Shown piece after piece: positions 812 to 50,363 of a stretch of 50,363 bases of DNA. The position numbers and the translations under genes are program-made. The DNA comes from a virus (taxonomy: Duplodnaviria > Caudoviricetes). The notes beneath the pieces were generated by a model. That model was not told the DNA's origin. It did not search any database and worked only from the letters and a program-made list of their open reading frames with translations. Position 1 is the stretch's first letter, and every line of letters begins with the position of its first letter. The stretch is from positions 1 to 50,363 of IMG/VR virus record IMGVR_UViG_3300025322_000030; one strand, written 5' to 3'.

Positions 812-2014
812 ATGACACAAAAAGAGAGAAAATTACCAGACTGGTTAGATGGATTCATGGCACTGACAGAGAACTCAGAACCGCCAGTTTTATATAGGAA
901 GTGGGTAGGAATATCTGCAATAGCCTCTGCATTACAAAGGAAAGTTAGAGTTGATCTTGGTATATCACTGACTATGTACCCAAACTTTTATGTGGTCTTA
1001 GTTGGACCACCATCTACAGGTAAGGGTACTGCAATGAAGTATGGAAGTGATATACTGGATCAGATACCTTCCATCAAAATGGCTGCTCAAGCAACTTCAC
1101 TTCAAGCATTAATTCGTAGGATGAAGACTGTCAACTTAACCGACATAGAATTAGATACAGGTCGTCAGATATTTCACTCATCAATGACTATACTAAGCAA
1201 TGAGTTTACGGTATTCTTAGGCTATCACAACAGAGAGCTAATATCATCTCTTTGTGACTGGTTTGACTGTGGAGAAAGATGGGCTTATGATACCATTAAG
1301 AGGGACAGAGAAGAGATAATTGGTGTGTGGGTCAATCTATTAGCTGGCACCACAGCTGACTCACTACGTGAAGCACTACCATCGACTGAAACTGTGAGGG
1401 GGGGACTCACATCTAGAATAATCTTTATAAACGAATATAAGAAGAACAAATTAGTTATATTCCCAACTGTAACACAGGATGAAATAGAACTACAGCAGCA
1501 TCTTATTAGAGATCTTGAGCAAATAGGTCTGATGAGCGGAGTGTTTAAGTATACAGAAGGCGCCATGGACTTCTACACAGACTGGTGTATAGAAGCTGAA
1601 AACAATCCTCCGTTTAGTGATAATAAGTTCGATGGTTACTGTGGTAGGAGACGAAAACACCTAACAGCGCTTGCCATGGTGTGTAGTGCTAGTAGAAGTA
1701 ATAATATGGTACTGACCAGGGATAATTTCGAGAGGGCAGCTCATTTGCTTGGTGAGGCCGAGGTAAGAATGGGAACTGTGTTTAGAGGGATTGGCAAATC
1801 TGACATAGCATCACTTATAAATGATGCAATAGTGTTTCTGCAGAACTCAGCAGTACCTGACATTCCACTGTTTCAATTTGCTAGAAGATTTGAAGGAGAT
1901 GTTGACAAGATAGTTATGGACAGGATATTAACTACACTTGAAAGCATGAAGTACATCCAAGTTATCAGAAGACCTGGGACTGAAAGTGTTATTCATGTAC
2001 TTGGTAAGAAATAA
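812..2014 (+). CDS. DUF3987/YfjI-like P-loop NTPase, probable replicative helicase
   Basis: Walker A GPPSTGKG, Walker B-like ILSNEF, GGLTSRIIF; follows polA-mazG. Confidence 0.7.
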   Translation: MTQKERKLPDWLDGFMALTENSEPPVLYRKWVGISAIASALQRKVRVDLGISLTMYPNFYVVLVGPPSTGKGTAMKYGSDILDQIPSIKMAAQATSLQALIRRMKTVNLTDIELDTGRQIFHSSMTILSNEFTVFLGYHNRELISSLCDWFDCGERWAYDTIKRDREEIIGVWVNLLAGTTADSLREALPSTETVRGGLTSRIIFINEYKKNKLVIFPTVTQDEIELQQHLIRDLEQIGLMSGVFKYTEGAMDFYTDWCIEAENNPPFSDNKFDGYCGRRRKHLTALAMVCSASRSNNMVLTRDNFERAAHLLGEAEVRMGTVFRGIGKSDIASLINDAIVFLQNSAVPDIPLFQFARRFEGDVDKIVMDRILTTLESMKYIQVIRRPGTESVIHVLGKK

Positions 2015-2038
2015 GTTCAATCCAAAATTTATCGAACT
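2014..2038. promoter_or_regulatory. 25-bp palindrome copy 1, at the convergence of the two genome arms
   Basis: AGTTCAATCC-AAAAT-TTATCGAACT. Confidence 0.85.
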
Positions 2039-5000
2039 TGTTCCTGCTCAGCTCTAAGCCGCTCAACTTCCCTGAAAAATTCAGGCCCTGCATAACCTCT
2101 TGCTCCAAGCACTACCGAAAGCTGTCTAGATAAGCTTTCCTTCTGCGCTTCAGTCTTGGCACGATCAAGCCTATCCAAATAATCCCTAGCTTTAGCCTCT
2201 GCAGGTTGGCTCCACATTCTGACCCAGGTAGCTCTGTTAGGTAAGTCCTTAATCTTGCTTATGAACTCAGCCCTACCAATCAATCTTTCCTGCTCAGCAA
2301 GTGTTGGAACCTTCTTCTTGTCATTAAGATGCTCCATAAGCTTGTCATTTGCACCCTTGACTCCGTACCAATAGTGAGCCTTTGAATAATAATCTATACT
2401 TCCTGAGTTTACAAAGTCGTTAAATTTAGTATCTTCAAGTATCTCACCTTGCTTCTCCATTATATCAGTGCCTGATTTGACTACTCTGATAAATCTTTTA
2501 ATTCCTGGCACCTTGGACAATATAAGTGCTAGGTGCTCCTCTTGCATTTCCTTCGGTATGTCACCAAAGGCTTCATCATAGCCAGCTCCAACTGCGTAAG
2601 TCCAGATATTGTCACCTAGAAGTGACCTCTTAACAGCCTCTAGTCTATCAGGTGATAGCTTAGTGACCTGACCTACATCTATTGCCATCTCAGACGTCCT
2701 ACCCTTAGTAAATTCCTCAGCACTCTTTGGCCAGCTAAATGTTTCTGGAGTTATATGTTTCCTTGTCCAGAAATCTATGTTAAGCATATACTCAAAGGCA
2801 GCTCTTTGCGCTGGAGGCAGTGACATAATATCGGGAGCTGCTTTAGTCAGCGATCCAAGTATTGCCTGGTAGTCTGGAGGTCTATCTATAACTCCAGTCT
2901 CATACATAAACTTCTGCGTCAGTCCCCTGAACAAGTTCTTGAAGAAAGCAGCTCCAGAATCAAGGGGGATGGTAAGAGCTAGCCCATTCTCCTGGCCAGC
3001 ACTATCTATGAATCTGAAGCTGTCAGGAAAAGGTATGACCAGGTTATTATCCTCCAAGTACTCAGGTATGTCATCACTAGTTTCTGGCGAATAAAGTTTG
3101 CTGGCAGCTACAACTAAAACAGTTGGTATTCCAACAGTCTGAACAACTCTAGCAATAGCCTGCTGAGGATTTTCGATCATAGATCTGCCAAACGATCTAA
3201 TGGCCTGGACTCCTGCACTAAGATAGATCAATCCAAGCTTGTCCAACATCTTTGTGAACCATCCACCTTGCTGGAAGTCAAGATAGTCCCTAGCAACAAA
3301 CACAGCCTCATCCATAACATCGTTGTTCTTTCTAGCTTCCTTAACACTAATACCAGCCTCAGCTGCTCTTTGTCTAACGACTCTCTCAGCAATTGCCATC
3401 CTAGTCCACATCTCAAGTGATTCAGATGCATACATAAAGAAGTTCTCAAGTGGAGCAAATCTTCCTGGGAGCTTATATCCAGTAACACTTGTTCTAGCTT
3501 GCGTAGAAAGGAATGGCATAAGCAGTCCACGTTCTGCAGCTCTCATATATTTCTCACGTTCTCCTGACTTATAATTTCTAAGAAATGTATCATAGAATGT
3601 ACTCTTAAAGTCTCTCCCTAGCTGCATGAAAAACACTGGAGGATGTGAACTATATATCTGCCCAAATTCTCCCTTCTTATATCTGCCAGCAGTTTGATGT
3701 GCGTGCATTATGTCTCTAGGCAAGTTAACAAACAGTGACCAGAGTGGAGCTGCACCAGTTAACATGGCCTTTGTTATTGGAGCTAAGGTTATATAATTAG
3801 CCCACCTAATAGCCCTTGGAGATATATCCTTACCAGCTGCTTCCAAGCCTCTTGCGAACTGAGAATCAAGATATAGAGTCTTTCTCTGTCCTCCAACTCT
3901 ATAGTTAAACTTTGTCCATAGCCTAGCATCAACAATCGGATCTTGGTCAGGATGAGCATCTTTCTTAGTAAGCTTAACTATAGAATTCTTAGGATTCCTA
4001 TAAGCCATGTCAGCTAGTTCAACAAAAGTCCTATTTCTAAAAGCCTGACCATATACTCTGTTGAATATCTCCAGGGCAACAAGTCTCTGATCGGTCTCAA
4101 GAATATCTGTCAGCCTACCTTTCTGAAGTGACTCTATTCCGGAGCTATTGACTGATCTAGCTCTACCACCTATAGTTACAGTCTCCTTCTCATCATATAG
4201 CAGTTCAATAGGAACTCCTTCACCTTTCTCCAATCTCTGCCCAATTCCTCTAAACTTAGCATAGTCATGCTTCCTAAGTCCATCAGCCATTTCACTACTG
4301 ATAATACCTTCCTGTTCCCTAACATCAACAAGTTTCTTCATCCATTCAAAGTATGCATCCCTTCTACGGATCATCCCAAGATCTTCACCTGGCTTTAAGT
4401 CCTCAAGTACACCAAACAAAGCTTCGTAAGTAGCTGAATTAGCTGGTGATTGACCTTCTGGAAACTTAACTCCAGCCTTATAGCTAGCTATGTCAGTAAC
4501 TCTTTTACCTCTAGTCAGTTTATTAAGAACACTAACTCCATTATTACTAAGTCCTCCAAACACTTCCTTATCAAACTGCATAAACATCTTCTGTCCATAA
4601 GCATGTCCACCAGATTCATTAATCATTTTCCATAGAACTCTGGTAGACTGTTCATCTAACTCACCAGCCTTTATGCCTTCAACTAGTGCTTTTCTAGCTC
4701 TGTGCTTGGTGTCCCAGATGCCCTCAGCAATTAGTTTCTTGCGCTCACCTAATGTCAGTTTCTTAGCTTCCTTAGACGCAGCCTCATCACGCTCAAATGC
4801 TTCCTTATAATCAAGGGCTTTCTCAACAACAGCTCTTTGCTCAGTGGTTAGTTTACCGAGGTCCGACCTTGTAACTTTCTGTGTTTTGCTTCTAGATAAT
4901 ATCTTCCTAACGACTTCAGCAGTTTTATCAAATGGAAAGCCAGCATATAACTTAGTGCCACTTTCATCATATACACTTCTTACCTTCAAAGGCTTATTCG

Positions 5001-8000
5001 ATACAATATCTCCCTCCTTAATCTCACCAGTGTATTCCACTTCTAATACGTAAGGCTTTGCAGATCTATTCGCATCATATATGACCTTAGCCTTTAGAGC
5101 AACACCAGAGGGATTTTTGTCAAGCGCTCCTAATGCAATAAGAGCATTATCATAGGCCTCTCCAGCAAATTTAGCATACTCTACAGCATCACCAAAATCT
5201 CTAGCCACAAATATTAGCTCATCCTTAAACGGTCTGCCTTCACCAGCCAATGACAATTTGAAATACTCATGATCGTATATTCTATCTTTAGCCCTATCTC
5301 TGGTAATACCAGTTAGATTAAGTTTATCTAATACATCTACAATTATCTGCTCAAGAGACCTTGGTTTTAGATATCCACCAACTATATTCTCTGGTTTAAC
5401 GTACTTAGAACTAGTTCCATGAAACACAGTGCGTAACTTATTTTTCCTTGTATCAGGAGGAAGTTCACTCATAGACTTAGCACCAGATTCAAAGTGGACT
5501 ATCACATGCTCACTTTTGAATTCCTCAGATGTTAGTGGTGGTATCTCTCTCCTCTCAGCCTCAGTTAATCTAACTCTAGCACCTACATCTCTAGCTTCTA
5601 TTTCACCTGCTAACATAGAGTAAGCATAGTAATTTAAACTTCCAGCATCTTTAATTATACCTCTAAGTACAGATTCTTCTTTATTAGTTAATATTTTATT
5701 TATTAGATCTAATTTACTTTCTATAGAGGATCTAACACGTCCTGCTTCTTCACTTATCCTAGCTATATCACCAAGATAAACTGTTACGGTACTTGATGCA
5801 AAAAAGTCATCAACTCCCAACAACTCATGAATCTCCTTTGCAACTAAATAATTATCATTCATTAGCTTACGAACTGTCTTTTGATCCTGAGAGGCAGCAG
5901 CAATAGAATTGAATAGTTCTCTGTCCTTCCTGATCAAGTCATCAAGCCTACTTGACTTACCAGGATCTGATCTAACCTCAGATAATAGTCTAATAATCTC
6001 GTTTAGCTTTCCAAATCTATACTTTTCAGTATCTATGATTTTGCCAGTCTCAGCCACCAATTTGTCTGCCAAGTCTACAATAATATCACCTTTGGCACTA
6101 TCTATAGCTTTACTGACAGTACCACCAGTAGCAAATCCTGACTTGAACTGTATATAATGCTGTAGCTCATGAACGACTGTGTTTAGCTTATCTTCAGCAT
6201 ATGGAGTTACAGTGAGTGTGTTAGTAACGTCATCATACCTGCCTTGTATCTGTTTAAGTAGGTCTGCTAGTATAGGAGGTCTCTCAATTCTGAATTTTAT
6301 ATCAGCAGCCTCAGGATGTGCCCTGAACAGATCTGGATAATCTATAAGATCACCTACTCTTATCTCATTTATAATACCTTTACTGGGAACAGTTTCAACT
6401 ATACTCTCAAGTGAAGTGTTGAACTTAAGCTTACTATCATCAATCTCAAATCTCCATTTACTATCATGAGGATTGAAGAAGAATCCAGTTCTTCTCCATA
6501 TACGATCAGCAGTAGTCTTTGACTCTGGAATGATCTTCCTTATACTTTCAAACAACTCTCTAACAATAGCAGGAGCCTTGGTTGGGTCTATAAACAGATT
6601 CAAGTTGCCCATTATATCTCGTGTGGCAGATTGATCAAATTTGGGCCGATCTGCTTTGCGAGCCCAGTCCGCAGCTTCTGATACAGATTCCTTCCATTGG
6701 TAGAATGATTCTGGATAACCCTCACCAACAAAGTGATATTTAAACTCATCAGCTCTAGCAGCTAACTCACTGAGGAAATCCCTAGTACCAATAATATCTA
6801 TCTTCTCACCATCTAACCACCTATTTACATCATTAACTAATTTCCAATAAGTAACTCCAGGGTCAGGAATCGGCCTGTCAGGTAACTGATTTAGCAAGTC
6901 ATCGACGCTGGTAGCTACAGACTTACTCTTTTCATACACAAGTTTCCTAGCAGCTGTCACATCTGACGTTTGCCGAAGTGGAGAGTTATCATCTGTTAAC
7001 TCAGGAAGTCTTGGAGCCTTAGTTTGTACATCAACTTCAGTAAGTGGCTCTTGTTCGGGTACCTTCTCCTCAAGCCCATAGAACTTATCTATCTCAGCTT
7101 CGGTCAATTCCTCAGCTTTTTTGCCGTAGAATTTTTCTATATCTGATTCAGCAGGTTCAACAACTTTTGGTTCGACCTTTGGTAGCTCAACCTTCGGAGC
7201 CTCACCCTCCAAAAATTTAGCTATATCTTGACTAGGTATGTCCTCAAAGTTTTTGCCAAAATATTTTTCAATCTCATTTATCTGCTTACTAGTAACAAGT
7301 ATTTCAGGCTCTACTGATACAGTTGGTTTTATCTCTGGTGCAGCAGGAAGTGCTTCTGGTTTTGCAGGCTCAGCCGTTGGTTCTGGTTCCACAACTTTAA
7401 CAGGTTCCTCAATCACTCCTCTTTTTCTAACAGCCTCTTTAGCAAGCTCAGTCATTCTCTTCTGAGCTTCTGTAGGTTCCTCAATTCCCTTAAAGGGCCC
7501 CTTAGCTAATGTCTCAGGCTTTTCAGGTTCAGTCTTTGGAGGAAGCTTAGCTTCTTCCTTAGCTTCAATGATCTTTCTAGTTTCAGCAATAAGCTCTTTC
7601 TTGGTAGGTCTCTTAGGCCTTGGCTGAGTCTGCTTAACATCCTTAAGTTCTTTACTCTTAACTTCTGTTTCCTGCTTAGATGCAATTGCATTCTCAGCAT
7701 CTTCAACAGCTTCCTTAGCTTTTAACTCATTTTCAATTCTCTGAGCTTTCAGTACTTCAATTTGAGCCTGTTTGATAGCTTCATCAGGTATTGTATTTAT
7801 CAGATCTTCTTTTTGCTTAATCTCAGCTCTTTTTAGAGTGACATCCTCTATGTCTTTAGTAAGCTTTCTAACCCTTCTGGCTGGCAAACCTCTCCATAAG
7901 AATAAGGCATCAAGACCTAAATCAAATATCACCTCTCCAACATCTCTATTAGTAAACTGATCAGGTCCAAGCTCAACAGCTCGTTGAGCGTTGAGACCTA

Positions 8001-8928
8001 TCATACCAGTGATAAGTCTAGCCCCAAGCTCAACTCCATTACCAGGAAATAGTCCTTTAGCCAAGCCAAATATAGTACCAGTTATTGCTCCACTTACTAT
8101 CCCTTCACCTATTCTACTAGCAGCTCCTGCAAATGTAGTTTCCTTGGCAGCTTCTCCAAGTGAAGCTAGACCAACTGCCGGACCGAGAACTATGGAATCA
8201 CGAAGAGCTGATTTAAGGATTCTAGCAGATAGTTTGTCACCTCTATAAACCCTAAAGAACTTCTCAATTTCTGCAGCTCTACGTTTAGGTAATTGCTTCA
8301 GCAGCGAAGCTCCAGACCTACTTACAATAGATACTGGTCCACCAGGAGTCAAGAAGCCAGCCAGATGACCAAGCCCATAACCTACATAGCCAGTAACGCT
8401 AGTTGGTGGAGGAGGCTTCTCACCAGTTATTGTCTCGACTGTAGCAGGTACCAACCCGGACAGATATGTGGAGAGAAATCCACTAGCTGCTTGCTCTACT
8501 AATTCAGGTGATCGCCTAAATTCATGAAGTGGTTTATTAGCTTCCCTTGCCATCCTTTCAACTACTGCCTGAGCCTTAGCATCTTCAGACAGCTGACCTA
8601 CGACATCGCCTAATCCAAGAACTCTAAGTGCACGCTCTATGTAGTTATATTCTGGTCTAGCGGCTGATATATGGCGCTCACCAGGGACCTTTGGAAGTCC
8701 TCTTGAGACCTCGGTAGATACTGGAGCAGCTGGCTCGTCATAGAACGGGACTCCAGTTAGGAAACCTAACGGAGCACCAAATTCAGGAGCTCTCTTAGGT
8801 TCAGGTAATGCAGGTTCTATAGTAGGAGTTGGCTCTAACAGACTCAATCCTGATATAGGACCTCTCAAATCCTGCTTAGATTTCTGCTGTTCATCTAGGA
8901 GATCAAGCCCTGATTTATCTAACGGCAT
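2029..8928 (-). CDS. Large polyvalent / internal virion (ejection) protein with LPD23-like region, zincin metallopeptidase, ART-like domain and LPD38-like C-terminus
   Basis: ~2300 aa; IWRRTGFF..DSKWRFEIDD, VHELQH (HExxH), YSMLAGEIEARDV, VFHGTS..IFVA..AVEYA; last gene of the late arm; start moved to ATG 8928 after AAGGAG. Confidence 0.75.
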   Translation of the reverse strand: MPLDKSGLDLLDEQQKSKQDLRGPISGLSLLEPTPTIEPALPEPKRAPEFGAPLGFLTGVPFYDEPAAPVSTEVSRGLPKVPGERHISAARPEYNYIERALRVLGLGDVVGQLSEDAKAQAVVERMAREANKPLHEFRRSPELVEQAASGFLSTYLSGLVPATVETITGEKPPPPTSVTGYVGYGLGHLAGFLTPGGPVSIVSRSGASLLKQLPKRRAAEIEKFFRVYRGDKLSARILKSALRDSIVLGPAVGLASLGEAAKETTFAGAASRIGEGIVSGAITGTIFGLAKGLFPGNGVELGARLITGMIGLNAQRAVELGPDQFTNRDVGEVIFDLGLDALFLWRGLPARRVRKLTKDIEDVTLKRAEIKQKEDLINTIPDEAIKQAQIEVLKAQRIENELKAKEAVEDAENAIASKQETEVKSKELKDVKQTQPRPKRPTKKELIAETRKIIEAKEEAKLPPKTEPEKPETLAKGPFKGIEEPTEAQKRMTELAKEAVRKRGVIEEPVKVVEPEPTAEPAKPEALPAAPEIKPTVSVEPEILVTSKQINEIEKYFGKNFEDIPSQDIAKFLEGEAPKVELPKVEPKVVEPAESDIEKFYGKKAEELTEAEIDKFYGLEEKVPEQEPLTEVDVQTKAPRLPELTDDNSPLRQTSDVTAARKLVYEKSKSVATSVDDLLNQLPDRPIPDPGVTYWKLVNDVNRWLDGEKIDIIGTRDFLSELAARADEFKYHFVGEGYPESFYQWKESVSEAADWARKADRPKFDQSATRDIMGNLNLFIDPTKAPAIVRELFESIRKIIPESKTTADRIWRRTGFFFNPHDSKWRFEIDDSKLKFNTSLESIVETVPSKGIINEIRVGDLIDYPDLFRAHPEAADIKFRIERPPILADLLKQIQGRYDDVTNTLTVTPYAEDKLNTVVHELQHYIQFKSGFATGGTVSKAIDSAKGDIIVDLADKLVAETGKIIDTEKYRFGKLNEIIRLLSEVRSDPGKSSRLDDLIRKDRELFNSIAAASQDQKTVRKLMNDNYLVAKEIHELLGVDDFFASSTVTVYLGDIARISEEAGRVRSSIESKLDLINKILTNKEESVLRGIIKDAGSLNYYAYSMLAGEIEARDVGARVRLTEAERREIPPLTSEEFKSEHVIVHFESGAKSMSELPPDTRKNKLRTVFHGTSSKYVKPENIVGGYLKPRSLEQIIVDVLDKLNLTGITRDRAKDRIYDHEYFKLSLAGEGRPFKDELIFVARDFGDAVEYAKFAGEAYDNALIALGALDKNPSGVALKAKVIYDANRSAKPYVLEVEYTGEIKEGDIVSNKPLKVRSVYDESGTKLYAGFPFDKTAEVVRKILSRSKTQKVTRSDLGKLTTEQRAVVEKALDYKEAFERDEAASKEAKKLTLGERKKLIAEGIWDTKHRARKALVEGIKAGELDEQSTRVLWKMINESGGHAYGQKMFMQFDKEVFGGLSNNGVSVLNKLTRGKRVTDIASYKAGVKFPEGQSPANSATYEALFGVLEDLKPGEDLGMIRRRDAYFEWMKKLVDVREQEGIISSEMADGLRKHDYAKFRGIGQRLEKGEGVPIELLYDEKETVTIGGRARSVNSSGIESLQKGRLTDILETDQRLVALEIFNRVYGQAFRNRTFVELADMAYRNPKNSIVKLTKKDAHPDQDPIVDARLWTKFNYRVGGQRKTLYLDSQFARGLEAAGKDISPRAIRWANYITLAPITKAMLTGAAPLWSLFVNLPRDIMHAHQTAGRYKKGEFGQIYSSHPPVFFMQLGRDFKSTFYDTFLRNYKSGEREKYMRAAERGLLMPFLSTQARTSVTGYKLPGRFAPLENFFMYASESLEMWTRMAIAERVVRQRAAEAGISVKEARKNNDVMDEAVFVARDYLDFQQGGWFTKMLDKLGLIYLSAGVQAIRSFGRSMIENPQQAIARVVQTVGIPTVLVVAASKLYSPETSDDIPEYLEDNNLVIPFPDSFRFIDSAGQENGLALTIPLDSGAAFFKNLFRGLTQKFMYETGVIDRPPDYQAILGSLTKAAPDIMSLPPAQRAAFEYMLNIDFWTRKHITPETFSWPKSAEEFTKGRTSEMAIDVGQVTKLSPDRLEAVKRSLLGDNIWTYAVGAGYDEAFGDIPKEMQEEHLALILSKVPGIKRFIRVVKSGTDIMEKQGEILEDTKFNDFVNSGSIDYYSKAHYWYGVKGANDKLMEHLNDKKKVPTLAEQERLIGRAEFISKIKDLPNRATWVRMWSQPAEAKARDYLDRLDRAKTEAQKESLSRQLSVVLGARGYAGPEFFREVERLRAEQEQVR
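6628..6652. promoter_or_regulatory. 25-bp palindrome copy 2 (intragenic, at a domain boundary)
   Basis: AGATTGATCA-AATTT-GGGCCGATCT. Confidence 0.7.
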
Positions 8929-39821: not shown

Positions 39822-39834
39822 AGGAGTAACAAAA

Positions 39835-43441: not shown

Positions 43442-43731
43442 ATAAAGAAGAAGTAAAAGAGTTGATATCAACAAAGGATATACTACAAGCTACCTCAGAA
43501 GAGTTGAAAGAGATACATATGAGGTTGGCTAAGTTGGAGAGTAAACTAAACAGATACGACAGAATATTCGAGTCAGCTTTTAGAGAAGAGGCAGAATCCA
43601 GGTTGCATCTTGGATCACTGCATGGACATGAACAAGCAGATAAAGCATACAGAGCTAGTAGTCTAGAGATGTTAAGAATGAAATTAGAAAGGAAGGTGAT
43701 GCCTGGAACACTAATACCTGTTGACAAATAG
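43438..43731 (+). CDS. Hypothetical coiled-coil protein
   Basis: GGAGGTG RBS; 97 aa. Confidence 0.6.
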   Translation: MNKEEVKELISTKDILQATSEELKEIHMRLAKLESKLNRYDRIFESAFREEAESRLHLGSLHGHEQADKAYRASSLEMLRMKLERKVMPGTLIPVDK

Positions 43732-43754
43732 TCCGAACCAAAATAAATCAATCT
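43730..43754. promoter_or_regulatory. 25-bp palindrome copy 16
   Basis: AGTCCGAACC-AAAAT-AAATCAATCT. Confidence 0.8.
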
Positions 43755-44319: not shown

Positions 44320-44344
44320 AGTTCGTTCCAAAATTGATCGAACT
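44320..44344. promoter_or_regulatory. 25-bp palindrome copy 17
   Basis: AGTTCGTTCC-AAAAT-TGATCGAACT. Confidence 0.85.
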
Positions 44345-44357: not shown

Positions 44358-44754
44358 ATGGATTACTCAGTCATAATACTTTCAGTTGCTATAATATTAT
44401 TAGCTATAAGTGTATGTGCTTTAGATAGAAAAATACGAGCTCTAAATGACATATGCATGAGTCATTTATGTCAATCAGCGGATAAGCCTGATGACAAAGG
44501 AAAAGACAATGGACTACAAGATTATCAGTGTAAATAGAAGAACTTATCCAAAGCAACTTGGAAGTACTGATGAGTGGGATTACTCACCTCCAACAATTGT
44601 AACTGTGTTAGTCCTTGGTAACGTAGGTGACTACGCAGCATACATAGGTATAGGATCTCCAGAATGGATTGCGAGGTTTGGAGCTAAACTCATGTTTGAA
44701 GAAGCTAAAATTCACTTTCCAACTATAGAAAGAGAAAAGTACAGAGGTTACTGA
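44358..44754 (+). CDS. Small membrane protein (44358-44537) and hypothetical protein (44509-44754)
   Basis: Hydrophobic VIILSVAIILLAISVCAL; RBSs present. Confidence 0.55.
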
Positions 44755-45887
44755 TGAACATTCTAGTTCTAGGCTACGACGGTTACATAGGCTGGCCACT
44801 TACACTTGAGCTACTCAAAGATGGACACATTGTTAGTGGAATAGATAATGGATCTAGAAGGTTTAGAGTAACTGAGTGTGGAAGTCAGTCACTGACACCT
44901 ATACTTACAAGAGCTAGCAGATGGACCTACCTGAGAGATAATTTCGATAAGGTTCATCTTCTGATAGATAACAACATCTCACACATGAGTGAGCAGTTAA
45001 AATATATCTTTGAAAACTATAGCATAGACGTTATATTCCATCTAGCCGAGCAGCCATCTGCACCCTGGTCAATGGCTAATTTCCATCGGGCCAATAAGAC
45101 CCAGATAGAGAACGTATCCGGTACACTTGCTCTACTTTGGGCCATGAAAGAAGCATGTCCAAAAGCTCACCTAATCAAAATAGGTACAATGGGCGAGTAT
45201 GGTACACCTAATTGTGACATCCCTGAAGGTAGAATAGAAGAAGGTCCAATGGCTGGACTTCTATTTCCTCGTACTGCAGGCTCGTTCTACCACCTCTCCA
45301 AGGTCCACGATACTCACAACATTGAGTTTGCTTGTCGTAACTGGGGACTTCGTTCGACTGACATAATGCAAGGAGTTGTATTTGGATTGAATGAAACTGA
45401 CAATGATGCAGAGTTGACCAGGTTTGATTATGATGAGTACTTTGGAACTGTCATAAACAGATTCTGTGTCCAGGCTATCATAGGCCATCCACTCACAGTA
45501 TATGGCTATGGAGGCCAAACAAGAGGGTTCATACCACTGAGAGACTCAATCAAGTGTCTGAAAATAGCGATGGATAATCCTCCTGTGAAGGGTGAGTATA
45601 GAACATTTAATCAGTTCGAGAGTATTCATACTATTAACGAGCTAGCTTATATGGTTAGGGATGCACTTCACACTCTCAACATGCCATACAGGATAGATCA
45701 CATACCTAATCCACGTAAGGAATCAGAAGATCATTACTATAATCCAAGGCATTTGGGTCTGGCTAAGTTTGGCTACAGCCCATCTATATCCATACACAGG
45801 GATATATACGAACTAATCAAAAAAATTCTACCATACAAGGACAGAGTAATCAAAGAAGTAATCATGCCAAAGACTACATGGAAATAG
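44754..45887 (+). CDS. sqdB: UDP-sulfoquinovose synthase (SqdB/SQD1/Agl3 family SDR)
   Basis: GYDGYIG, SLTPI, HLAEQPSAPWSM, GTMGEYGTPN, SFYHLSKVHD, TDIMQGVV, RFDYD..FGTVINRF, PLTVYG.GGQTRGF, GEYR.FNQF. Confidence 0.88.
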   Translation: MNILVLGYDGYIGWPLTLELLKDGHIVSGIDNGSRRFRVTECGSQSLTPILTRASRWTYLRDNFDKVHLLIDNNISHMSEQLKYIFENYSIDVIFHLAEQPSAPWSMANFHRANKTQIENVSGTLALLWAMKEACPKAHLIKIGTMGEYGTPNCDIPEGRIEEGPMAGLLFPRTAGSFYHLSKVHDTHNIEFACRNWGLRSTDIMQGVVFGLNETDNDAELTRFDYDEYFGTVINRFCVQAIIGHPLTVYGYGGQTRGFIPLRDSIKCLKIAMDNPPVKGEYRTFNQFESIHTINELAYMVRDALHTLNMPYRIDHIPNPRKESEDHYYNPRHLGLAKFGYSPSISIHRDIYELIKKILPYKDRVIKEVIMPKTTWK

Positions 45888-46758
45888 CTATGTATAAAAT
45901 AAGATTTAAGTATTTCTGCTCATCCTGTGGCATAACCTGGTATAGTATGGAAGATGCACCTCATGCCAGAATATGTATAGAGTGTCAGACTGATAAGCAC
46001 ACAGAGTATAGAGAAATAACAGAACACGACGACATACCGGCTAGTATAAATCCACTTACAAATGGAAGTGAATAATGTCATCTATAGATTACAAACCTAG
46101 ATTAGTAATTGAGATTACTGAAGAGCAGAAGAAAAGAGCTGACAGGCTAATAGGCCAGTATGGTCTAAGAAAAGCTGTATTTGGGCCAGTCTTGGACGAC
46201 GTACTTGATTTGATAGAGGAGTACGGTGGTGTGGCTATAGGTATTATGATTAGTGGTAAGGTCAAACCAAGGGATATCATTCCAATCTTACGTAGGGCTG
46301 AGGAGGTAGGCAATGGCGAATCTAGATGATCTTGGAATTGTGTCAATCTCTGACATGCAGACAGATGAGGCACTGGAGCTTCTTCGTCAGATAAGATTAT
46401 CTAGAAGAATTCCAACTGGTAAGACTAAAACCAAATCACAGACAAAGAAGCAATCCAAATCAGCACTAAACATCAGCTCAGAACAAGCAGCTGAGATACT
46501 AAAACTCATAACTGGAGAAGACAAATGACTACATTTAGTATACACTTGAACGAGAGAGAATTAGTAAGCTTGATAAAGTTCTTGATGTGTCTATCTGATG
46601 AAACAGTAGGCACATTTACATACTTCACTAAAGGAAAGGCACTCAGGGTTCACTTCAGAGGAGACAATAAAAAGGTGCAAAAGCAGATATGTGAATGGCT
46701 AAGTATTCCTGAGAGAAAACAGAACTTTATGGGAGCTAAGGATGATAAAAGTCGGTGA
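45878..46758 (+). CDS. Four small ORFs (45878-46075 CxxC zinc ribbon; 46075-46329 RHH-like; 46313-46528; 46525-46758)
   Basis: Coupled ORFs; YKPRLVIEITEEQKKR resembles an RHH strand-helix. Confidence 0.55.
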
Positions 46759-48061
46759 AGTGGCTATGATCCCAACGTCGTCAATAGTTGTTGATGATGA
46801 CAGAGCTAGAAAGATAATGGGAGACCTGGATGGGCTAGAAACTAACATGAAAGAATCAGGACTAATCTCTCCATTAGCTGTAAAATATAACAGTGATGGG
46901 AGTTACAAACTCCTGGCTGGCGAACGTAGATATATTGTACTCAAGCGTAATAATGTAGAAAGCATACCAGTTAGAATATATACTGAGGATCTAACTGATC
47001 TCGAGATGAAGATTATAGAGAAGTCTGAAAACTTCTTTCGCAAGGACATGGAATACTGGGAGTTTGACAAGCTAACTCTCGAGATCCATCAAATGCAGCA
47101 GGAGCTGCATGGAGCTAAGACTCCAGGACCTACAAGCGTAGGTTGGGGGACTAGAGATACTGCAGAGATGTTATCCAGTAGTCAGCCCGCTGTAGTTGAA
47201 TCTGTGAAACGAGCTCAGGCTAGAGAAGCATTCCCAGATCTGTTTGACAATTGTAAGACTGCAAGTGATGCCAGTAAGATACTGAAGAAGATAGATGAAG
47301 CTGCTGTTAGGCAGGTTATAGCACAAAGGCTGGAAGCTCAGTCATCTGAAGGCACCATCCATGACTTAGCTAAGAGATTTATAGTGAAAGACTTCTTCAA
47401 AGGTATTAGGGAAGTCCCTGATGGAATAATTCACTTAGTGGAAATAGATCCACCATATGCTATAAACTTGGCTCATCAAAGAAAGAAGGACGGTGAGTCA
47501 CAGTATCAGCTAGAAGACTACAATGATATAGATCAAGACTCATATCCATCATTTTTGGATCGAACTTTGAAGGAATGTTATAGGGTGATGACTGAGCACT
47601 CATGGCTAATTATCTGGTTCGCGCCAGAACCCTGGTTCGATGAAGTATATAAGGCACTAAACAGCGCAGGATTTAGCACGACTAGAATGGTAGGCGTATG
47701 GACGAAAGGTGTGCCTGGGCAGAGTATGAATCCCTCAATCAGACTAGCCAACAGCTACGAAATGTTCTTCTACGCATGGAAAGGTCAGCCTGCACTAAAC
47801 AAAGCTGGCAGAAGCAACGAGTTTCATTTCTCACCAGTTCCATCTAATCAAAAGACCCATCCAACAGAGAGACCAATAGAGCTAATGAAGGAGGTATATG
47901 ATACTTTTGCGTTCCAAGGATCTCGAGTGCTAATTCCTTTTCTTGGATCTGGAAATGGAATACTCGCATCCCAGCAGCTTGGAATGTCAGCTTTTGGATT
48001 TGAGCTTAGTAAGTCGTATAAGGATTCATTCTTAGTCAAAGTACACTTAATGAGAGGATAA
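46742..48061 (+). CDS. ParB-like CTPase domain, HTH and beta-class amino-DNA methyltransferase fusion
   Basis: LLAGERRY, SENFFRKD, TRDTAEMLSSSQPAV (HTH), IDPPY, HPTERP, PFLGSG. Confidence 0.85.
   Translation: MIKVGEVAMIPTSSIVVDDDRARKIMGDLDGLETNMKESGLISPLAVKYNSDGSYKLLAGERRYIVLKRNNVESIPVRIYTEDLTDLEMKIIEKSENFFRKDMEYWEFDKLTLEIHQMQQELHGAKTPGPTSVGWGTRDTAEMLSSSQPAVVESVKRAQAREAFPDLFDNCKTASDASKILKKIDEAAVRQVIAQRLEAQSSEGTIHDLAKRFIVKDFFKGIREVPDGIIHLVEIDPPYAINLAHQRKKDGESQYQLEDYNDIDQDSYPSFLDRTLKECYRVMTEHSWLIIWFAPEPWFDEVYKALNSAGFSTTRMVGVWTKGVPGQSMNPSIRLANSYEMFFYAWKGQPALNKAGRSNEFHFSPVPSNQKTHPTERPIELMKEVYDTFAFQGSRVLIPFLGSGNGILASQQLGMSAFGFELSKSYKDSFLVKVHLMRG
47542..47566. promoter_or_regulatory. 25-bp palindrome copy 18 (degenerate, intragenic)
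   Basis: ATATCCATCA-TTTTT-GGATCGAACT. Confidence 0.55.
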
Positions 48062-48198: not shown

Positions 48199-48204
48199 CT
48201 CAAT

Positions 48205-50363
48205 ATGAAACGCACCTTCGTTCCACCATCAGGCAACAAATCTGCAAAGCTAGCTTTGTGTGGCGAGCAGCCTGGCAAAGATGAGATCATGGCTCGTCCA
48301 CCTCAGCCTTTTGTCGGACCTGCAGGTAAGGGCCTGAATGAGTGTCTGGCTGTAACCAAGACACTTCGTAGAGATTTATATCTAACAAATGTAATAAAGG
48401 ACTTGGATCACCCACTTTCATATTACATAGATATAAATCAACGAGGTAGGCATACGATTAGTCAGGAGGGCTATCAGTACATCCAGGAGTTAGCTGAAGA
48501 ACTCAAACAGATCAGGCCTAATTGTGTGGTAGCTCTTGGCAACGTAGCGCTGTTGGCACTGACAAATCGAATAGGAATTACCAAGTGGAGAGGATCAGTT
48601 CTTGAATCAACTGTTGTACCAGGACTTAAGGTTGTTCCTACATTTCATCCAGCTACATTCATACCACCGAAGTTTAACTTTCTCAATAAACCACTGATAT
48701 GTGAGGATTTAGAAAGGGCCAAACATGAAAGTGAGTTTCCTGAAATCAGACGTTTAGCTAGAAACATAATAGTTCGACCCAATTTTGATCAGACTGTTGA
48801 TATACTAAACTATTGCTATGAAGTTGGATTAAGGGGTCAAACTATTGGATTTGACTTAGAGCTTATAGGCGGAGAAGTAGACTGCTTCTCTGTTGGGTGG
48901 TCATCTATAGATTCGATAAGTGTTCCATTAAGAGGACCTCAAGGAGATTACTTTAACCCAGAGGAAGAGTTAGAGATAATGCTACTGTTGGCTAAGATAG
49001 TCCAGGAGCCAAGAATATCCAAAGCTGGAGCCAATGTAATCTTTGATACACAAGTGCTATTTCACAAGTACGGTATCCGACCAAGAGGTAAGATTCACTG
49101 CACACAAATAGCCCAGAAAATATCCTATCCAGATTTCTCAGTCGGACTAGACTTTGTTACTGCAATGTACACAGACATTCCATACTACAAACAAGATGGT
49201 AAGCAGTGGATGAAAATGCAAGCTGGTACCTGGGAGCAGTGGTGGAACTACAATGGAATGGACTCTATAGTACCAGCCGATGTAATTCCAGAGCAGCTCC
49301 AGGCACTTGCTAAACAGCAGAATGAGGAAACCTATGAGAGAAAACTAAGGCTCATGGAACCTCTCATTTATATGTCTGAGAGAGGAATTAGAGTTGATGT
49401 TCAAGGAATGATGGAATATAGGGAGAAACAGCAAACTGAACTTGATAGACTCTCTGAGGAACTAAACAGAGAAGTTGGATATGAAATTAATTTCAACTCA
49501 CCAAAGCAGTTAATGAATTACTTTTATAATGAAACAGGGATTAAGCCATACAAGAAGAGGAATACCAAGAATGAATATGTAGACACAACAGACGTGGACG
49601 CGCTTAAGCGTATCTCAAGAAGAGGTGGACCTGGAAGTCAGGCAGCCAAGCTACTGCTTGATATAAGGTCACTCAGTAAACGAATATCAACTTACTTAAA
49701 CATAGGAAAGGTGGATATAGATGGACGATACAAAAGTTCATACAAGCCGGTCGGAGCTGATACTGGACGACTCTCATCTGGAGAAACTATCTTCGGTACT
49801 GGAGGAAATCAGCAAAATTGGCCTCATGACCTACTCAGATTCTTTCTCTTTGACGAGGGATATATCGGATACTCGCTTGACCTTAGCCAAATCGAAAACA
49901 GAATTGTTGCCCACGTCGGAGGAGTAATAACGCAGATAGAGGCATTCGAGCAAGGTATAGATCTACATAAACTGACTGCTGGTGTGATACTTGATAAGTC
50001 GTATGATCAAATATCTGATGAGGATAGTTCCTCAGACATAGGCGACGGTAGACATAGTGAACGCTTCTGGGGAAAGAAAGGTAATCATGCTATAAACTAC
50101 GATGTTCAATACAAGACATTTGCACTGAAGAATGAACTTCAAGAAGGCGAGGCTAAGTATATACTTGAGAAGATTCACAGGGGATATCCGCAAATTAGGG
50201 ATGGCTACCACGTAACTATTCAGAATATGCTGAAGAAGAATAGAACTATTACAAACCTGTTTGGCCGTAGCAGATTATTCCTCGGTCCTATATTCCAATC
50301 CTATCCAAATGTGCCTAAGAGTGCATGTGAAGCTACATATAGAGAAGCTTATGCTCAGTTAGC
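48205..50363 (+). CDS. polA: Family A DNA polymerase with N-terminal family-4-like UDG domain and 3'-5' exonuclease (848 aa after circularisation); absent from the ORF track
   Basis: Translated by hand: GEQPG, FVGPAG, YLTNVIK, TFHPA; ExoI GFDLE, ExoII NVIFD, ExoIII YNGMD; TGRLSS, motif A DLSQIENR, motif B RFWGKKGNHAINY. Confidence 0.93.
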   Translation, partial: MKRTFVPPSGNKSAKLALCGEQPGKDEIMARPPQPFVGPAGKGLNECLAVTKTLRRDLYLTNVIKDLDHPLSYYIDINQRGRHTISQEGYQYIQELAEELKQIRPNCVVALGNVALLALTNRIGITKWRGSVLESTVVPGLKVVPTFHPATFIPPKFNFLNKPLICEDLERAKHESEFPEIRRLARNIIVRPNFDQTVDILNYCYEVGLRGQTIGFDLELIGGEVDCFSVGWSSIDSISVPLRGPQGDYFNPEEELEIMLLLAKIVQEPRISKAGANVIFDTQVLFHKYGIRPRGKIHCTQIAQKISYPDFSVGLDFVTAMYTDIPYYKQDGKQWMKMQAGTWEQWWNYNGMDSIVPADVIPEQLQALAKQQNEETYERKLRLMEPLIYMSERGIRVDVQGMMEYREKQQTELDRLSEELNREVGYEINFNSPKQLMNYFYNETGIKPYKKRNTKNEYVDTTDVDALKRISRRGGPGSQAAKLLLDIRSLSKRISTYLNIGKVDIDGRYKSSYKPVGADTGRLSSGETIFGTGGNQQNWPHDLLRFFLFDEGYIGYSLDLSQIENRIVAHVGGVITQIEAFEQGIDLHKLTAGVILDKSYDQISDEDSSSDIGDGRHSERFWGKKGNHAINYDVQYKTFALKNELQEGEAKYILEKIHRGYPQIRDGYHVTIQNMLKKNRTITNLFGRSRLFLGPIFQSYPNVPKSACEATYREAYAQL
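48771..48795. promoter_or_regulatory. 25-bp palindrome copy 19 (in the UDG-exonuclease linker of polA)
   Basis: AGTTCGACCC-AATTT-TGATCAGACT. Confidence 0.75.
50238..50363. repeat. 126-bp direct terminal repeat, right copy
   Basis: Identical to 15-140. Confidence 0.95.

Follow-up and report, generated by a model that had tools for sequence, protein, structure and literature searches.

Dispersed 25-bp symmetric sites in a metagenomic phage genome co-vary with the helix-turn-helix of a ParB-methyltransferase fusion, their candidate reader

On the IncP plasmid RK2, 12 OB sites fall into three classes by distance from promoters, Noc of Bacillus has about 70 dispersed 14-bp NBS sites, and the stoperators of Cluster A mycobacteriophages are asymmetric, orientation-dependent sites of 13-14 bp that a temperate-phage immunity repressor recognises. 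The nucleotide-gated clamp of the RK2 protein KorB slides from the OB sites, as described in the excerpted text of PMC11790492. Fusions of a ParB-CTPase fold with an N6/N4 methyltransferase are frequent in phages, where an anti-defence role has been suggested, and ATP binding is reported for some ParB-SAM-methyltransferase fusions (PMC12704722, excerpt). A phage ParB-like protein can also activate a DNA-modifying enzyme, as for the ParB-dependent thymidine dioxygenases (PMC13229309, excerpt). In Cluster O mycobacteriophages, the 17-bp dyad repeat TGTTCGGNNNCCGAACA is present in more than 30 dispersed copies in a phage of approximately 70 kb, and the authors suggested a dimeric binding protein and doubted a transcriptional role (PMC4351075, excerpt).

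The window analyzed here (IMGVR_UViG_3300025322_000030, 50,363 nucleotides) is a complete, circularly permuted metagenomic phage genome of approximately 50 kb, over which approximately 20 copies of a 25-bp two-fold symmetric word of the family AGTTCGATCCAAAATnGATCGAACT are dispersed, far above shuffled controls. A preliminary description had listed 19 copies, and a 25-mer of the family is present at all 19 starts. These copies score 21.8-35.5 bits with a leave-one-out position weight matrix (PWM), and a PWM scan of the whole window adds a weaker copy that was absent from the earlier list (40122-40146, 20.4 bits) and no other site above 13 bits. In 100 dinucleotide-preserving shuffles, the best score has a mean of 10.1 and a maximum of 19.8, and matches above 15 bits average 0.06 per shuffle. 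The degenerate IUPAC pattern has 7 exact occurrences in the window and, at up to two mismatches, gives 17 matches at 16 sites (40481 matches on both strands), with 0 matches for the pattern read backwards. Elsewhere, 596 Gb of genomes from 185,579 species contain 26 single matches and never two on one contig; the site word thus appears to be private to the phage.

The proposed 10+5+10 geometry with an all-A/T spacer holds, and A1, G2, and T25 are invariant. The term "palindrome" was, however, overstated: the two-fold symmetry stands, whereas among the 19 copies just 4 have at least 8 of 10 Watson-Crick arm pairs. Conservation includes the outer arms (AGWTY...RWCT) and does not extend into the flanks outside the 25 bp.

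The copies are mostly intergenic or stop-overlapping, as had been described, with 14 of 20 in gene gaps or over a stop codon and six within ORFs. At the convergence of the two arms of the genome, the copy at 2014-2038 (+) occupies the gap between the primase (812-2014, +) and giant (2029-8988, -) genes and overlaps both stop codons, and 8 of 9 complete relatives have an orthologous copy. Among the minus-strand copies between genes, 10175-10199 reaches into the stop of 10198-11061, with GGAGG after it (orthologous in 4 of 9 relatives), 11499-11523 takes up the entire interval from the stop of 11522-12583 to the ATG of 11063-11497, 25816-25840 is immediately downstream of 25842-26135 (orthologous in 5 of 9), and 31179-31203 is upstream of the small-terminase-like HTH gene 30531-31109 (6 of 8 assessable relatives). 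The early control region contains 32222-32246 (-), 90 nt upstream of a promoter-like site at 32337. The copies at 32524-32548 (-) and 33778-33802 (+) both end 17 nt upstream of a -35 box, in TTGACA-18-TATGAT (32566-32595) and TTGACA-18-TACAAT (33820-33849), respectively. On the plus strand, 15870-15894 lies between 15896-16111 and the ATG at 15869, 21904-21928 lies between the stop of 21928-22275 and the portal start at 21898 (4 of 9), and 35974-35998 follows a strong intrinsic terminator (35900-35929) by 45 nt and precedes the gene at 36008 by 9 nt (6 of 8 assessable relatives). The copy at 37902-37926 (+) overlaps the ligase stop (36959-37903) and is followed by GGAGA and ATG; 43730-43754 (+) follows the Sak4-like ATPase block, 19 nt before the gene at 43774 (4 of 9); and 44320-44344 (+) is followed by AAAGAGGAAA and ATG (5 of 9).

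Within ORFs, the copy at 6628-6652 (-) is in frame in the gene for a 2319-aa giant polyvalent protein. The window and the relatives G001-G004 all have an in-frame copy in their 6-7 kb giant genes, with one or two copies in each of these relatives, and none is present in the giant gene of the Desulfofustis phage. The copy at 28922-28946 (-) lies at the 3' end of the glycosyltransferase gene 28886-29947, with an ATG directly after it, and the weaker copy at 40122-40146 (+), which scores 24.3 bits in a second scan, is inside the HIRAN gene 40010-40306. The copy at 40481-40505 (+) is in frame in the zinc-ribbon gene 40303-40623, where it encodes K-F-E-Q-N-L-I-E-L; 6 of 9 relatives have a copy in the same place, and the encoded peptide shifts with the motif of the lineage. 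A degenerate copy at 47542-47566 (-) covers codons 267-275 of the ParB-methyltransferase gene, outside the HTH, and has an orthologue in 0 of 9 relatives. The copy at 48771-48795 (-) lies in polA between the UDG and exonuclease domains and is likewise without an orthologous copy; four relatives instead carry one in the gap between the ParB-methyltransferase gene and polA.

The relatives are uncultivated phages of approximately 45-52 kb, and conservation of the motif extends to them: 10 of 10 complete genomes contain 9-24 copies of their own version, with the same geometry, at approximately one copy per 2-3 kb and in part at gene junctions that are orthologous. A cluster of 3-15 copies is recovered from 70 of 71 related loci no shorter than 9 kb, compared with 0-3 in shuffled controls, and a more distant relative has only the 15-bp core, in 10 copies. 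Because copies are orthologous across genomes (8/9, 6/9, 6/8, and 6/8 for 2014, 40481, 31179, and 35974), the array has been changed in place, and the sites have changed in concert across lineages. The spacing is also more even than chance: the largest gap between copies is 4.3-7.8 kb in 10 genomes, versus a random expectation of 8-14 kb (P 0.0001-0.14 per genome), and the coefficient of variation of the gaps is 0.50-0.67, although intergenic placement alone could produce part of this evenness.

The ORF at 46742-48061 (+) encodes a candidate reader, for which profile, fold, and dimer predictions were obtained. Its N-terminal half comprises a ParB NTP-binding domain (residues 6-107) and an HTH DNA-binding domain (about 108-205), and its C-terminal half is an N6/N4 DNA methyltransferase with a DPPY motif (230-429). 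The helix-turn-helix (47150-47230, +) has helices at residues 137-143 and 148-163, the stretch being 'DTAEMLSSSQPAVVESVKRAQ'. Profile matches include Noc, Spo0J, ParB, and KorB, and Box I, GERR, and ENxxR do not vary across 25 sequences. The model of residues 1-215 (pLDDT 82) matches Noc (7nfu), ParB (7bm8), and KorB (8qa9) over 194-227 alignment columns and therefore over both the NTP domain and the HTH domain; Noc is the best match by both sequence and fold. The N-terminal half is thus predicted to have a ParB-like fold with conserved NTP-binding motifs. A homodimer is predicted with an ipSAE of 0.69, versus 0.00 for the best of 3 controls, with at least 87% of contacts common to the runs and a partner pLDDT of at least 72; among proteins of solved structure, the mark used is attained by 20 of 30 that were pairs and by 1 of 23 that were single chains. 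The predicted interface consists of residues 295-362 and 388 in the methyltransferase domain, and since beta-class methyltransferases such as CcrM are known dimers, this result may stem from resemblance to solved structures. Because the protein is without the ParB C-terminal dimerisation domain and has Ser in Box I where ParB has Gln, its use of CTP and the closing of a clamp are uncertain. Searches with PHROGs, Pfam, and NCBIfam reveal no ParA in this phage and, as previously noted, no repressor or integrase.

Co-variation with the sites was assessed for 1094 twelve-residue windows from 15 conserved protein families as the partial correlation with inner-arm distance, adjusted for polA distance. 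The top four windows all lie in the ParB-methyltransferase HTH (partial r 0.47-0.51, z 3.3-3.6, for non-independent genome pairs from relatives that were all gathered with the ParB-methyltransferase as the query). The fifth lies in the methyltransferase domain of the same protein, and the best window among the other 14 families, in a Pam3_gp32-like protein, reaches 0.42. Distance over the whole ParB-methyltransferase gives no excess correlation (partial r 0.11). At the level of residues, Gln at the start of the recognition helix accompanies A at half-site position 7 in 6 of 6 cases, with neither present in 43 of 43, and this rule involves five changes on a quick polA tree, with 4 of 4 independent pairs in agreement. 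Thr-Asp/Asn accompanies A at position 6 in six genomes with one discordant (2 of 2 independent pairs), and Pro accompanies C at position 9 in 4 of 4, but six genomes have C without Pro (2 of 2 independent pairs); these pair counts (4, 2, and 2) are each too few for 0.05. Two relatives from different polA clades, L073 and L085, both have '(S/T)QGAVSQ' and a CATTAA arm. The rules leak, as L112 (Asn) and L119 and L071 (Thr) retain the GTTTAA arm, and L131 and L134 have a common arm despite differing helices. Overall, the sites co-vary with the ParB-methyltransferase HTH beyond the polA phylogeny, which bears out the listing of the 46742 protein among the candidate binders. The suggested likeness to Fis/NtrC sites is not retained, a ParB-type HTH being the likely reader instead.

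On the basis of this sequence evidence, the 25-bp elements are probably the cognate parS-like docking sites of the phage's own ParB-methyltransferase, and the earlier reading of the array as a "silencing, organising or protective" system can be narrowed to a putative ParB-type system with the methyltransferase as its effector. In a homodimer joined via the methyltransferase domains, each of the two HTH recognition helices would sit on one inner arm (about positions 6-11 or 15-20), helix and site being matched to each other separately in each phage lineage. As in ParB, Noc, and KorB, the nucleotide-binding N-domains may subsequently shut, converting the dimer to a clamp able to slide away from the site. 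With approximately 20 sites at most 4-8 kb apart, the enzyme could then reach the whole genome, and only site-bearing DNA, so that the phage's own DNA would be marked by methylation. Copies just upstream of early promoters may additionally serve as KorB-like operators. Physical binding, clamp formation, sliding, the methylation target, and the benefit to the phage are all inferred. The half-sites are longer than expected for a single HTH, known parS, NBS, and OB sites measure 14-16 bp compared with 25 bp here, and the HTH does not account for the conservation of the outer arms. If the proposal is correct, the sites are the first candidate targets for a type of phage enzyme that is widespread but has had no explanation.

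Operators of a different dimeric regulator, from phage or host, that blocks or tunes transcription at gene junctions in a stoperator- or KorB-like manner are a rather unlikely alternative, under which the HTH correlation would be a by-product of shared ancestry or recombination. The unexplained outer arms would fit such a regulator, as would placement: 127 of 178 copies are intergenic or at ORF edges, among 41 strong sigma-70-like sites from 10 genomes, 14 are preceded by a copy whose end lies 0-80 nt before the -35 (uniform placement would give 1.2), and 32524 and 33778 have an identical offset to the -35. However, only approximately 18 of the 178 copies are near a strong promoter-like site, and windows of the other 14 families all fall below the HTH correlation. 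Phage candidates include the zinc-ribbon protein 40303-40623, whose gene retains its in-frame copy in most relatives, the HTH protein 30531-31109, and the RHH-like 46075 protein. The last had been proposed as a binder, but its putative DNA-reading strand, PRFSFEIT, is near-invariant across genomes whose arms differ, and a fold search with its model found nothing. A host factor fits poorly because the sites differ between close relatives and no arrays are present in the genomes of the 185,579 species. That the copies are promoters of an unrecognised phage RNA polymerase or sigma-like factor is scarcely credible. T7-like phages have about 17 conserved promoters, and a 25-bp word recurring approximately 20 times ahead of ribosome-binding sites resembles such a set, but the word is symmetric, some copies are in frame within genes and one separates converging genes, the searches of this phage gave no RNA polymerase, and strong sigma-70-type promoters are already present. 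The reported co-orientation of the AAAAT spacer with transcription is weakly evident in this phage (16 of 20, including 3 of the 16 where strong rightward promoters point in the opposite direction) and disappears over six genomes (51 co-oriented, 50 anti-oriented).

An RNA or single-stranded DNA hairpin, acting as a terminator, an RNase-processing or mRNA-stabilising stem, an N4-kind hairpin promoter, or a stop-to-start bridging device, would account for inverted repeats that fit precisely between one stop codon and the ribosome-binding site or ATG that comes next, and for the copy where the two arms converge. Transition mismatches also favor G-T pairing on the ATTTT strand (13 cases versus 2), and both arms shift together between lineages. 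Within one genome, however, the two arms vary independently: 3333 Watson-Crick arm pairs are observed versus an expectation of 3356.7 from shuffling the right-arm columns (54 genomes, 443 sites; z = -1.66), and in this phage 69.0% of arm cells pair, G-U included, versus 72.0% in shuffles, 492 of 500 of which equal or exceed the observed pairing. Only 4 of 10 Watson-Crick pairs form in copy 43730 and 5 of 10 in copy 21904, no T-run follows the copies, a true terminator already precedes 35974, several copies are in frame within genes, and no RNA polymerase gene was found. A hairpin is therefore highly improbable, and the dyad symmetry without base-pair covariation, in line with the earlier preference for a dimeric DNA-binding site, suggests a site for a two-fold symmetric protein on double-stranded DNA. 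It is very unlikely that the copies are selfish or recombinational, that is, a spreading REP/MITE-like repeat homogenised by gene conversion or linkers for module exchange, with no trans-acting reader. Copies flank two segments whose genes have no tblastn counterpart in G001-G004 or the Desulfofustis phage (21904 and 25816 around 21928-25845; 37902 and 40122 around 37938-40017), and 11522-15881, between 11499 and 15870, holds unmatched genes but is only partly window-specific; Cluster O phages show insertions and deletions between their 17-bp repeats (PMC4351075, excerpt). Against this, copy positions are orthologous across lineages with differing motifs, in-frame copies are retained in conserved genes where the protein sequence gives way to the motif, the motif type tracks the recognition helix of one protein, and no transposase or RAYT was found with PHROGs and Pfam.

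In comparison with described systems, the earlier likeness to stoperators is not supported beyond the dispersal of numerous sites. Cluster A stoperators also comprise some 20-30 dispersed sites in short intergenic gaps, with one phage reader and lineage-specific versions, whereas the present motif is symmetric, follows no orientation rule, and occurs in a phage in which no repressor or integrase was found. The Cluster O repeat is similar in its inverted arms, A/T-rich center, intergenic and in-gene copies, and lack of a clear orientation rule, and GTTCG/CGAAC is common to the arms of both; it differs in its 7+3+7 geometry and invariant arms, and the excerpted account assigns it neither function nor reader (PMC4351075). 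The same reader is not indicated for it because the Corndog methylase, gp7, belongs to the C5 cytosine class and a scan of six Corndog proteins shows no ParB domain. The surveyed phage fusions share the architecture of the 46742-48061 protein (PF02195 plus PF01555; PMC12704722), and the excerpted texts of PMC12704722 and PMC13229309 name neither DNA sites nor a dispersed site array for ParB-methyltransferase fusions. Noc (7nfu, 7ol9) is a ParB paralogue whose palindromic sites are likewise scattered over the genome and not clustered at a centromere, but it tethers DNA to the membrane, has no enzyme domain, and is chromosomal, not viral. KorB, whose structure 8qa9 is among the top matches of the phage protein, is likewise a ParB-family HTH protein with a short palindrome that recurs many times over a mobile genome of approximately 50-60 kb, some sites lying directly upstream of -35 boxes and others far from promoters (PMC11790492, excerpt). 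KorB differs in having a C-terminal dimerisation domain, the partners ParA (IncC) and KorA, and no enzyme, whereas the phage protein, for which no ParA was found, ends in a DNA methyltransferase and belongs to a lytic-type phage whose 25-bp site has a 5-bp A/T spacer.

All 19 copies of the 25-bp motif counted in the preliminary description are present in the window, and a twentieth, weaker copy is found at 40122. The PWM scores of the 19 copies, obtained by leave-one-out, range from 21.8 to 35.5 bits and exceed anything seen in 100 dinucleotide shuffles, where the best score has a mean of 10.1 and never rises above 19.8. The pattern itself matches 17 times, and the reversed-pattern control gives 0 matches. 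In the window and five relatives the motif spans exactly 25 bp, and the 30 bp on each side carry no information. The copies had been described as palindromes; the two-fold symmetry is confirmed, but a strict palindrome is not, as at least 8 of 10 Watson-Crick pairs form in only 4 of the 19 copies and some copies have just 4 or 5.

The copies are tightly placed: their leading AG is often the end of a stop codon, with an SD box or ATG coming 0-20 nt after the copy. The in-gene copies 47542 and 48771 lie within the ParB-methyltransferase gene (46742-48061, + strand) and polA, respectively, and seem to replace the copy found in the gap between these two genes in the relatives' genomes G001-G004. 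In the zinc-ribbon gene at 40303-40623, the copy encodes K-F-E-Q-N-L-I-E-L here and K-F-V-x-K-L-N-E-L in most lineages, so that the protein follows the DNA word of its lineage. This protein, which is present in 39 of 54 genomes, has an N-terminal CxxC...HxC zinc ribbon and a C-terminal LRDRR...STAPxSLL, with the copy in a variable linker. The reported co-orientation of the AAAAT spacer with transcription is seen for 16 of the 20 copies in the window but disappears over six genomes (51 versus 50), and at 3 of those 16 copies the opposite direction is suggested by four strong rightward promoter-like sites. Of the five best sigma-70-like matches (10-11 of 12), four fall on the + strand of a 2.5-kb control region, at 31402, 32337, 32566 and 33820, and the fifth is at 40927-40955; the 31.2-32.6 kb region may be transcribed rightwards, in which case its small minus-strand ORFs may not be genes.

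The window is a complete IMG/VR virus record of 50,363 bases, rated 100% complete, and is circularly permuted, since polA leaves the right end (48205-50363) and resumes at 13-528. Scans of the 77 ORFs against PHROGs, Pfam and NCBIfam reveal a leftward late arm, from about 31109 down to 2029, that encodes an HTH (small-terminase-like) protein, the large terminase, an SU10-type portal and major capsid protein, and tail genes. The giant 2319-aa polyvalent protein of this arm (2029-8988) has LPD23 as its sole domain match (residues 826-857), and its relatives are about 30% identical over part of the length, which indicates fast divergence. The rightward early/replication arm runs from about 31.4 kb to the end and then over 13-2014, with genes for a ligase, HIRAN, a PD-(D/E)XK exonuclease, a Sak4-like ATPase, the ParB-methyltransferase fusion, polA, MazG and a primase. 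In agreement with the statement that no repressor or integrase is recognisable, these scans detect no RNA polymerase, repressor, integrase, ParA or transposase in the window. A cluster of glycosyltransferase, SAM-methyltransferase and glycosyltransferase genes at 27654-29947, between the terminase and lysis-like genes, is found in this genome only, and an NAD-dependent epimerase/dehydratase (44754-45887) is present in 25 of 54 genomes; both may be morons for sugar modification of the surface or of DNA.

Among named phages the nearest is Desulfofustis phage LS06-2018-MD01, a metagenome assembly whose TerL is 47% identical to that of the window and whose gene order is the same; the accessible text of the paper on this phage does not mention repeats of the kind seen here. 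Megablast of 24 kb of the window against phage records gives zero matches. The 11 sequencing runs listed for this sequence are DNA contig runs, with no RNA run among them. The relatives form a large group of uncultivated phages of 45-52 kb, represented by 28 TerL loci (65-85% identical) and by 80 ParB-methyltransferase loci kept of 82. Imperfect 10+5+10 dyads were clustered de novo and the clusters refined by PWM, which yields a lineage-specific version of the motif in all 10 complete genomes (9-24 copies) and in 70 of the 71 loci that are centred on ParB and measure at least 9 kb (3-15 copies). The same pipeline returns 0-3 copies on shuffled loci, so only sets of at least 5 were kept. Examples of lineage versions are AGTCCGTTTAAAAATTAAACGAACT, AGATCAATTGAAATTCAATGGAACT, AGTTTGTCCAAATTTTGGACGATCT and AGTTAATTAAATAATTTAATTATCT, and the Desulfofustis phage carries GCTATGTCCCAAATTGGGACATAGT; a distant member, with a ParB-methyltransferase 50% identical, retains only the 15-bp core, GGTTAAAWWTTTAACC, in 10 copies. 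The window's own version is nearly missing from other DNA, with 6 exact pattern matches in IMG/VR. In 596 Gb of prokaryote genomes it gives 26 single matches, never two per contig, which by our own estimate is about chance level; the sites are private to the phage. In the closest relative (G006, the record of loci L056 and L136), the match to the major capsid protein at 13126-15283 is broken into two pieces separated by about 850 nt, the longer of which contains one TAA, and an inserted element or intron may be present. Aphanizomenon phage Yong-DA (ON073792.1, locus L153), annotated with Rep, ParA, ParB, recombinase and polysaccharide-synthesis genes and with no virion genes, was dropped as a second test case because its ParA, ParB, Rep and polysaccharide genes resemble those of a plasmid.

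Each copy of the window was mapped onto the complete relatives via the nearest conserved gene edge. Counterparts of 2014, the copy where the two arms converge, occur in 8 of the 9 complete genomes and those of 40481 in 6 of 9, followed by 35974 and 31179 (6 of 8 each), 25816 and 44320 (5 of 9 each), and 10175, 21904 and 43730 (4 of 9 each). Copy 11499 has a counterpart in 2 of 9 only, 33778 in none of 4 assessable genomes, and 15870, 37902, 40122, 47542 and 48771 in none. The sites have changed in place: part of their positions are kept among relatives, each with its own version of the motif.

Between lineages, both arms of the motif change together, which fits an RNA stem or a two-fold symmetric reader alike. 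Variation within genomes favors a protein reader. After removal of 11 loci (duplicate contigs or misregistered) and of sets with fewer than 5 copies, the 443 sites of 54 genomes contain 3333 Watson-Crick arm pairs, where shuffling the right-arm columns from copy to copy predicts 3356.7 (z = -1.66), so compensatory variation within genomes is absent. In the 20 copies of the window, 69.0% of the cells pair, compared with 72.0 +/- 1.6 in the shuffles, 492 of 500 of which are at least as high. A hairpin in RNA would gain some support from the transition mismatches, which favor G-T pairing on the ATTTT strand by 13 to 2 in our count, although this bias could also arise from A being in excess on the coding strand. 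No T-run follows the copies, as an intrinsic terminator would require; a true terminator, made of a 13-bp stem that has 8 G-C pairs and of a T6 run, stands at 35900-35929 as the sole convincing one in the part of the window from 30 to 50 kb, after the gene at 35456-35884 and 45 nt before copy 35974. With neither compensatory changes nor a T-run, the copies do not qualify as terminators or structured RNA hairpins, and the proposal of a dimeric protein site is supported.

Known classes of dispersed elements fit no better. The suggested likeness to mycobacteriophage stoperators, and with it an immunity-repressor system, is not upheld, as the site is symmetric, its orientation is balanced over the six genomes, and repressor and integrase are absent from the scans. 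REP/RAYT or MITE-like repeats are disfavored by the absence of a transposase match and by the orthology of copies across lineages. As for ParABS partition systems, no ParA family match is found among the 77 ORFs, and at its C-terminus the ParB protein has a PF01555 domain in place of the ParB dimerisation domain, so the array of the window is not a partition system.

Residues 6-107 of the ParB-methyltransferase form a ParB N-domain, with a PF02195 score of 38.8 bits (cut-off 26.3) and matches of the TIGR00180 and Noc models to the same residues. Box I, the GERR P-motif and Box III (ENxxR) are present, with Ser in place of the ParB Gln in Box I, and residues G40, L41, P44, G60, R62, R63, E93, E96, N97 and R100 are invariant in 25 sequences; this motif conservation is what the sequences show of a possible NTP-dependent clamp that would close and slide. 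An HTH domain follows directly, with modeled helices 137-143 and 148-163, and the model of residues 1-215 (pLDDT 82) has the fold of Noc, ParB and KorB, DNA-binding domains included (Foldseek, 194-227 columns). Residues 230-429 are a beta-class N6/N4 methyltransferase (PF01555, 61.7 bits) with a (D/S)PPY motif and invariant D236, P237, P238 and Y239, and the PDB matches of this part are N4C methyltransferases and CcrM. A dimer via the methyltransferase domain is predicted with an ipSAE of 0.69, compared with 0.00 for the best of 3 controls; at least 87% of the contacts are common to the runs, and the partner pLDDT is at least 72. Among proteins of solved structure, 20 of 30 pairs and 1 of 23 single chains attain this mark. 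Related beta-class methyltransferases are known dimers, and the predicted dimer may reflect likeness to these enzymes only. The homologue family is large, with 1190 cluster representatives at E <=1e-20, and many of the best 120 are on contigs of 46-53 kb. Two homologues, P0017 and P0071, are 67-72% identical and labelled as Bathyarchaeota and Thorarchaeota MAGs; these are probably misbinned phage contigs.

To relate proteins to sites, 15 protein families conserved around the ParB-methyltransferase gene were aligned, and divergence in 12-residue windows was compared with the profile distance of the inner arms (half-site positions 6-12), with the polA distance removed. Among 1094 windows, the top four are consecutive windows of the stretch TAEMLSSSQPAVVESVKRAQ in the ParB-methyltransferase (r 0.47-0.51, z 3.3-3.6, six near-identical genomes removed), which corresponds to the turn and recognition helix of the HTH. 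The fifth lies in the methyltransferase domain of the same protein, and the best window of any other protein has an r of 0.42. Only the windowed scan is informative: partial Mantel tests on whole proteins single out no family and reach at most 0.33, for a Pam3_gp32-like protein. The outer-arm scan has its top windows in Sak4, the 43774 protein, the exonuclease and the primase, and is confounded with the deepest splits.

Specific residues of the helix accompany specific bases. Ser-Lys occurs with a GTTTAA arm, Thr-Asp/Asn-Ala-Ser with AATTAAA (8 of 8 genomes, in at least two polA clades), (Ser/Thr)-Gln with A at position 7, and Ser-Pro with GT(C/T)CAAA. On the polA tree, Gln and A7 agree in 6/6 and 43/43 genomes, with five changes apiece, and all 4 independent pairs concur; Thr-Asp/Asn and A6 agree in 2 of 2 pairs with one discordant genome, and Pro and C9 in 2 of 2 pairs, with six genomes having C without Pro. 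Each of these tests is too small to reach 0.05 alone (4, 2 and 2 independent pairs on a quick polA tree). Loci L073 and L085 belong to different well-supported polA clades, and both have (S/T)QGAVSQ and a CATTAA arm; no protein of L085 is nearer to L073 than to its own clade, which speaks against gene transfer as the source of the convergence. There are exceptions, in that L112 (Asn) and L119 and L071 (Thr) keep GTTTAA, and L131 and L134 differ in the helix and share the arm. No motif copy overlaps HTH-coding DNA in any genome examined, so the correlation is not a coding artefact. The co-variation points to a site sequence that would be set by the recognition helix.

Of the binders suggested earlier, the ParB-HTH-methyltransferase at 46742 is the predicted reader, given its co-variation in the recognition helix, and the chance that it does read the sites is put at somewhat better than even. 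The RHH-like candidate at 46075-46329 does not gain such support. This 84-aa protein is kept in 53 of 54 genomes and has a strand-helix-helix order like RHH (PRFSFEIT, then two helices), but its PDB profile and Foldseek searches are both empty, and its model has a pLDDT of 76 with an unstructured N-terminus. The resemblance to Fis/NtrC sites is likewise not supported, the likely reader having a ParB-type HTH as judged from sequence and model. The central proposal, a dimeric protein site within a genome-wide system, is supported and can be sharpened to a putative ParB-type reader fused to a methyltransferase.

The copies are more evenly spaced than chance would have it. In ten genomes the largest gaps are 4.3-7.8 kb, compared with 8-14 kb for random points (P 0.0001-0.14), and the coefficient of variation of the gaps is 0.50-0.67. 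A null of gene junctions gives P near 0, which is partly trivial because without in-gene copies the gaps can never be shorter than the giant gene. In the window and in G001-G004, giant genes of 6-7 kb contain at least one in-frame copy each, and the 4.7-kb giant gene of the Desulfofustis phage contains none. This even spacing suggests that each site serves a limited stretch of DNA. Additionally, at 14 of the 41 strong sigma-70-like sites in the ten genomes a copy ends 0-80 nt upstream of the -35, where 1.2 are expected under uniform placement, although both features are confined to the non-coding DNA, which makes up 3-8%; in 4 of the 41 a copy lies just downstream of the promoter-like site, and two window copies share the same 17-nt offset to the -35.

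Even spacing, private sites and promoter-adjacent copies fit a protein that loads and spreads as ParB does, and would be in keeping with a predicted ParB-type spreading of the methyltransferase over phage DNA, with a possible side role at early promoters as for KorB. A nucleotide-gated clamp carrying the methyltransferase would load only at the roughly 20 private sites and slide a few kilobases each way, so that the phage genome would be methylated in cis and the host DNA, lacking sites, would be spared. By analogy with ParB clamps, such cis-restricted sliding methylation is possible but less likely than not. Equally tentative is the wider scheme of an enzyme that addresses itself to its own genome through parS-like sites, in which a matched helix and site, or address code, would have evolved separately in each lineage and the spacing would be held under the range of the clamp.

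If this is true, phage ParB-methyltransferase enzymes gain their first candidate target sites from the window and its relatives, more than 80 in number, and the natural series of matched helices and sites makes specificity testable by swapping a few residues. It would also hint at the delivery of enzymes by ParB-type loading and sliding, beyond the partition complex or repressor, and would offer a lead for the dispersed dyad repeats of other phages that still lack an explanation, such as those described for Cluster O in 2015.

The literature search, made in the accessible full texts, found no paper that ties a phage ParB-methyltransferase to a dispersed site array. Fusions of the ParB fold to N6/N4 methyltransferases were described in 2025 as frequent in phages and among the commonest ParB architectures there, with function and DNA target unknown as far as the accessible text of that paper goes (PMC12704722). 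The closest published phage array is the 17-bp dyad repeat of Cluster O mycobacteriophages, which the available part of its paper leaves unexplained and at which module exchange is proposed (PMC4351075). The same reader is not indicated there, as the methylase gene gp7 of the Cluster O phage Corndog encodes a C5 enzyme and no ParB domain is found in the six proteins scanned. In the window, motif copies flank gene blocks at 21928-25845 and 37938-40017 that have no tblastn match in G001-G004 or the Desulfofustis phage, and the flanked block 11522-15881, only partly window-specific, also holds such genes; as in Cluster O, the repeats may serve as crossover points for module exchange. One ParB-like protein of a phage is reported as the activator of a thymidine dioxygenase (PMC13229309). 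KorB and Noc have dispersed ParB sites, as do IncC plasmids (PMC10954446), and KorB, a spreading clamp with a role at promoters, provides the comparison for the side role that the copies of the window may have (PMC11790492).
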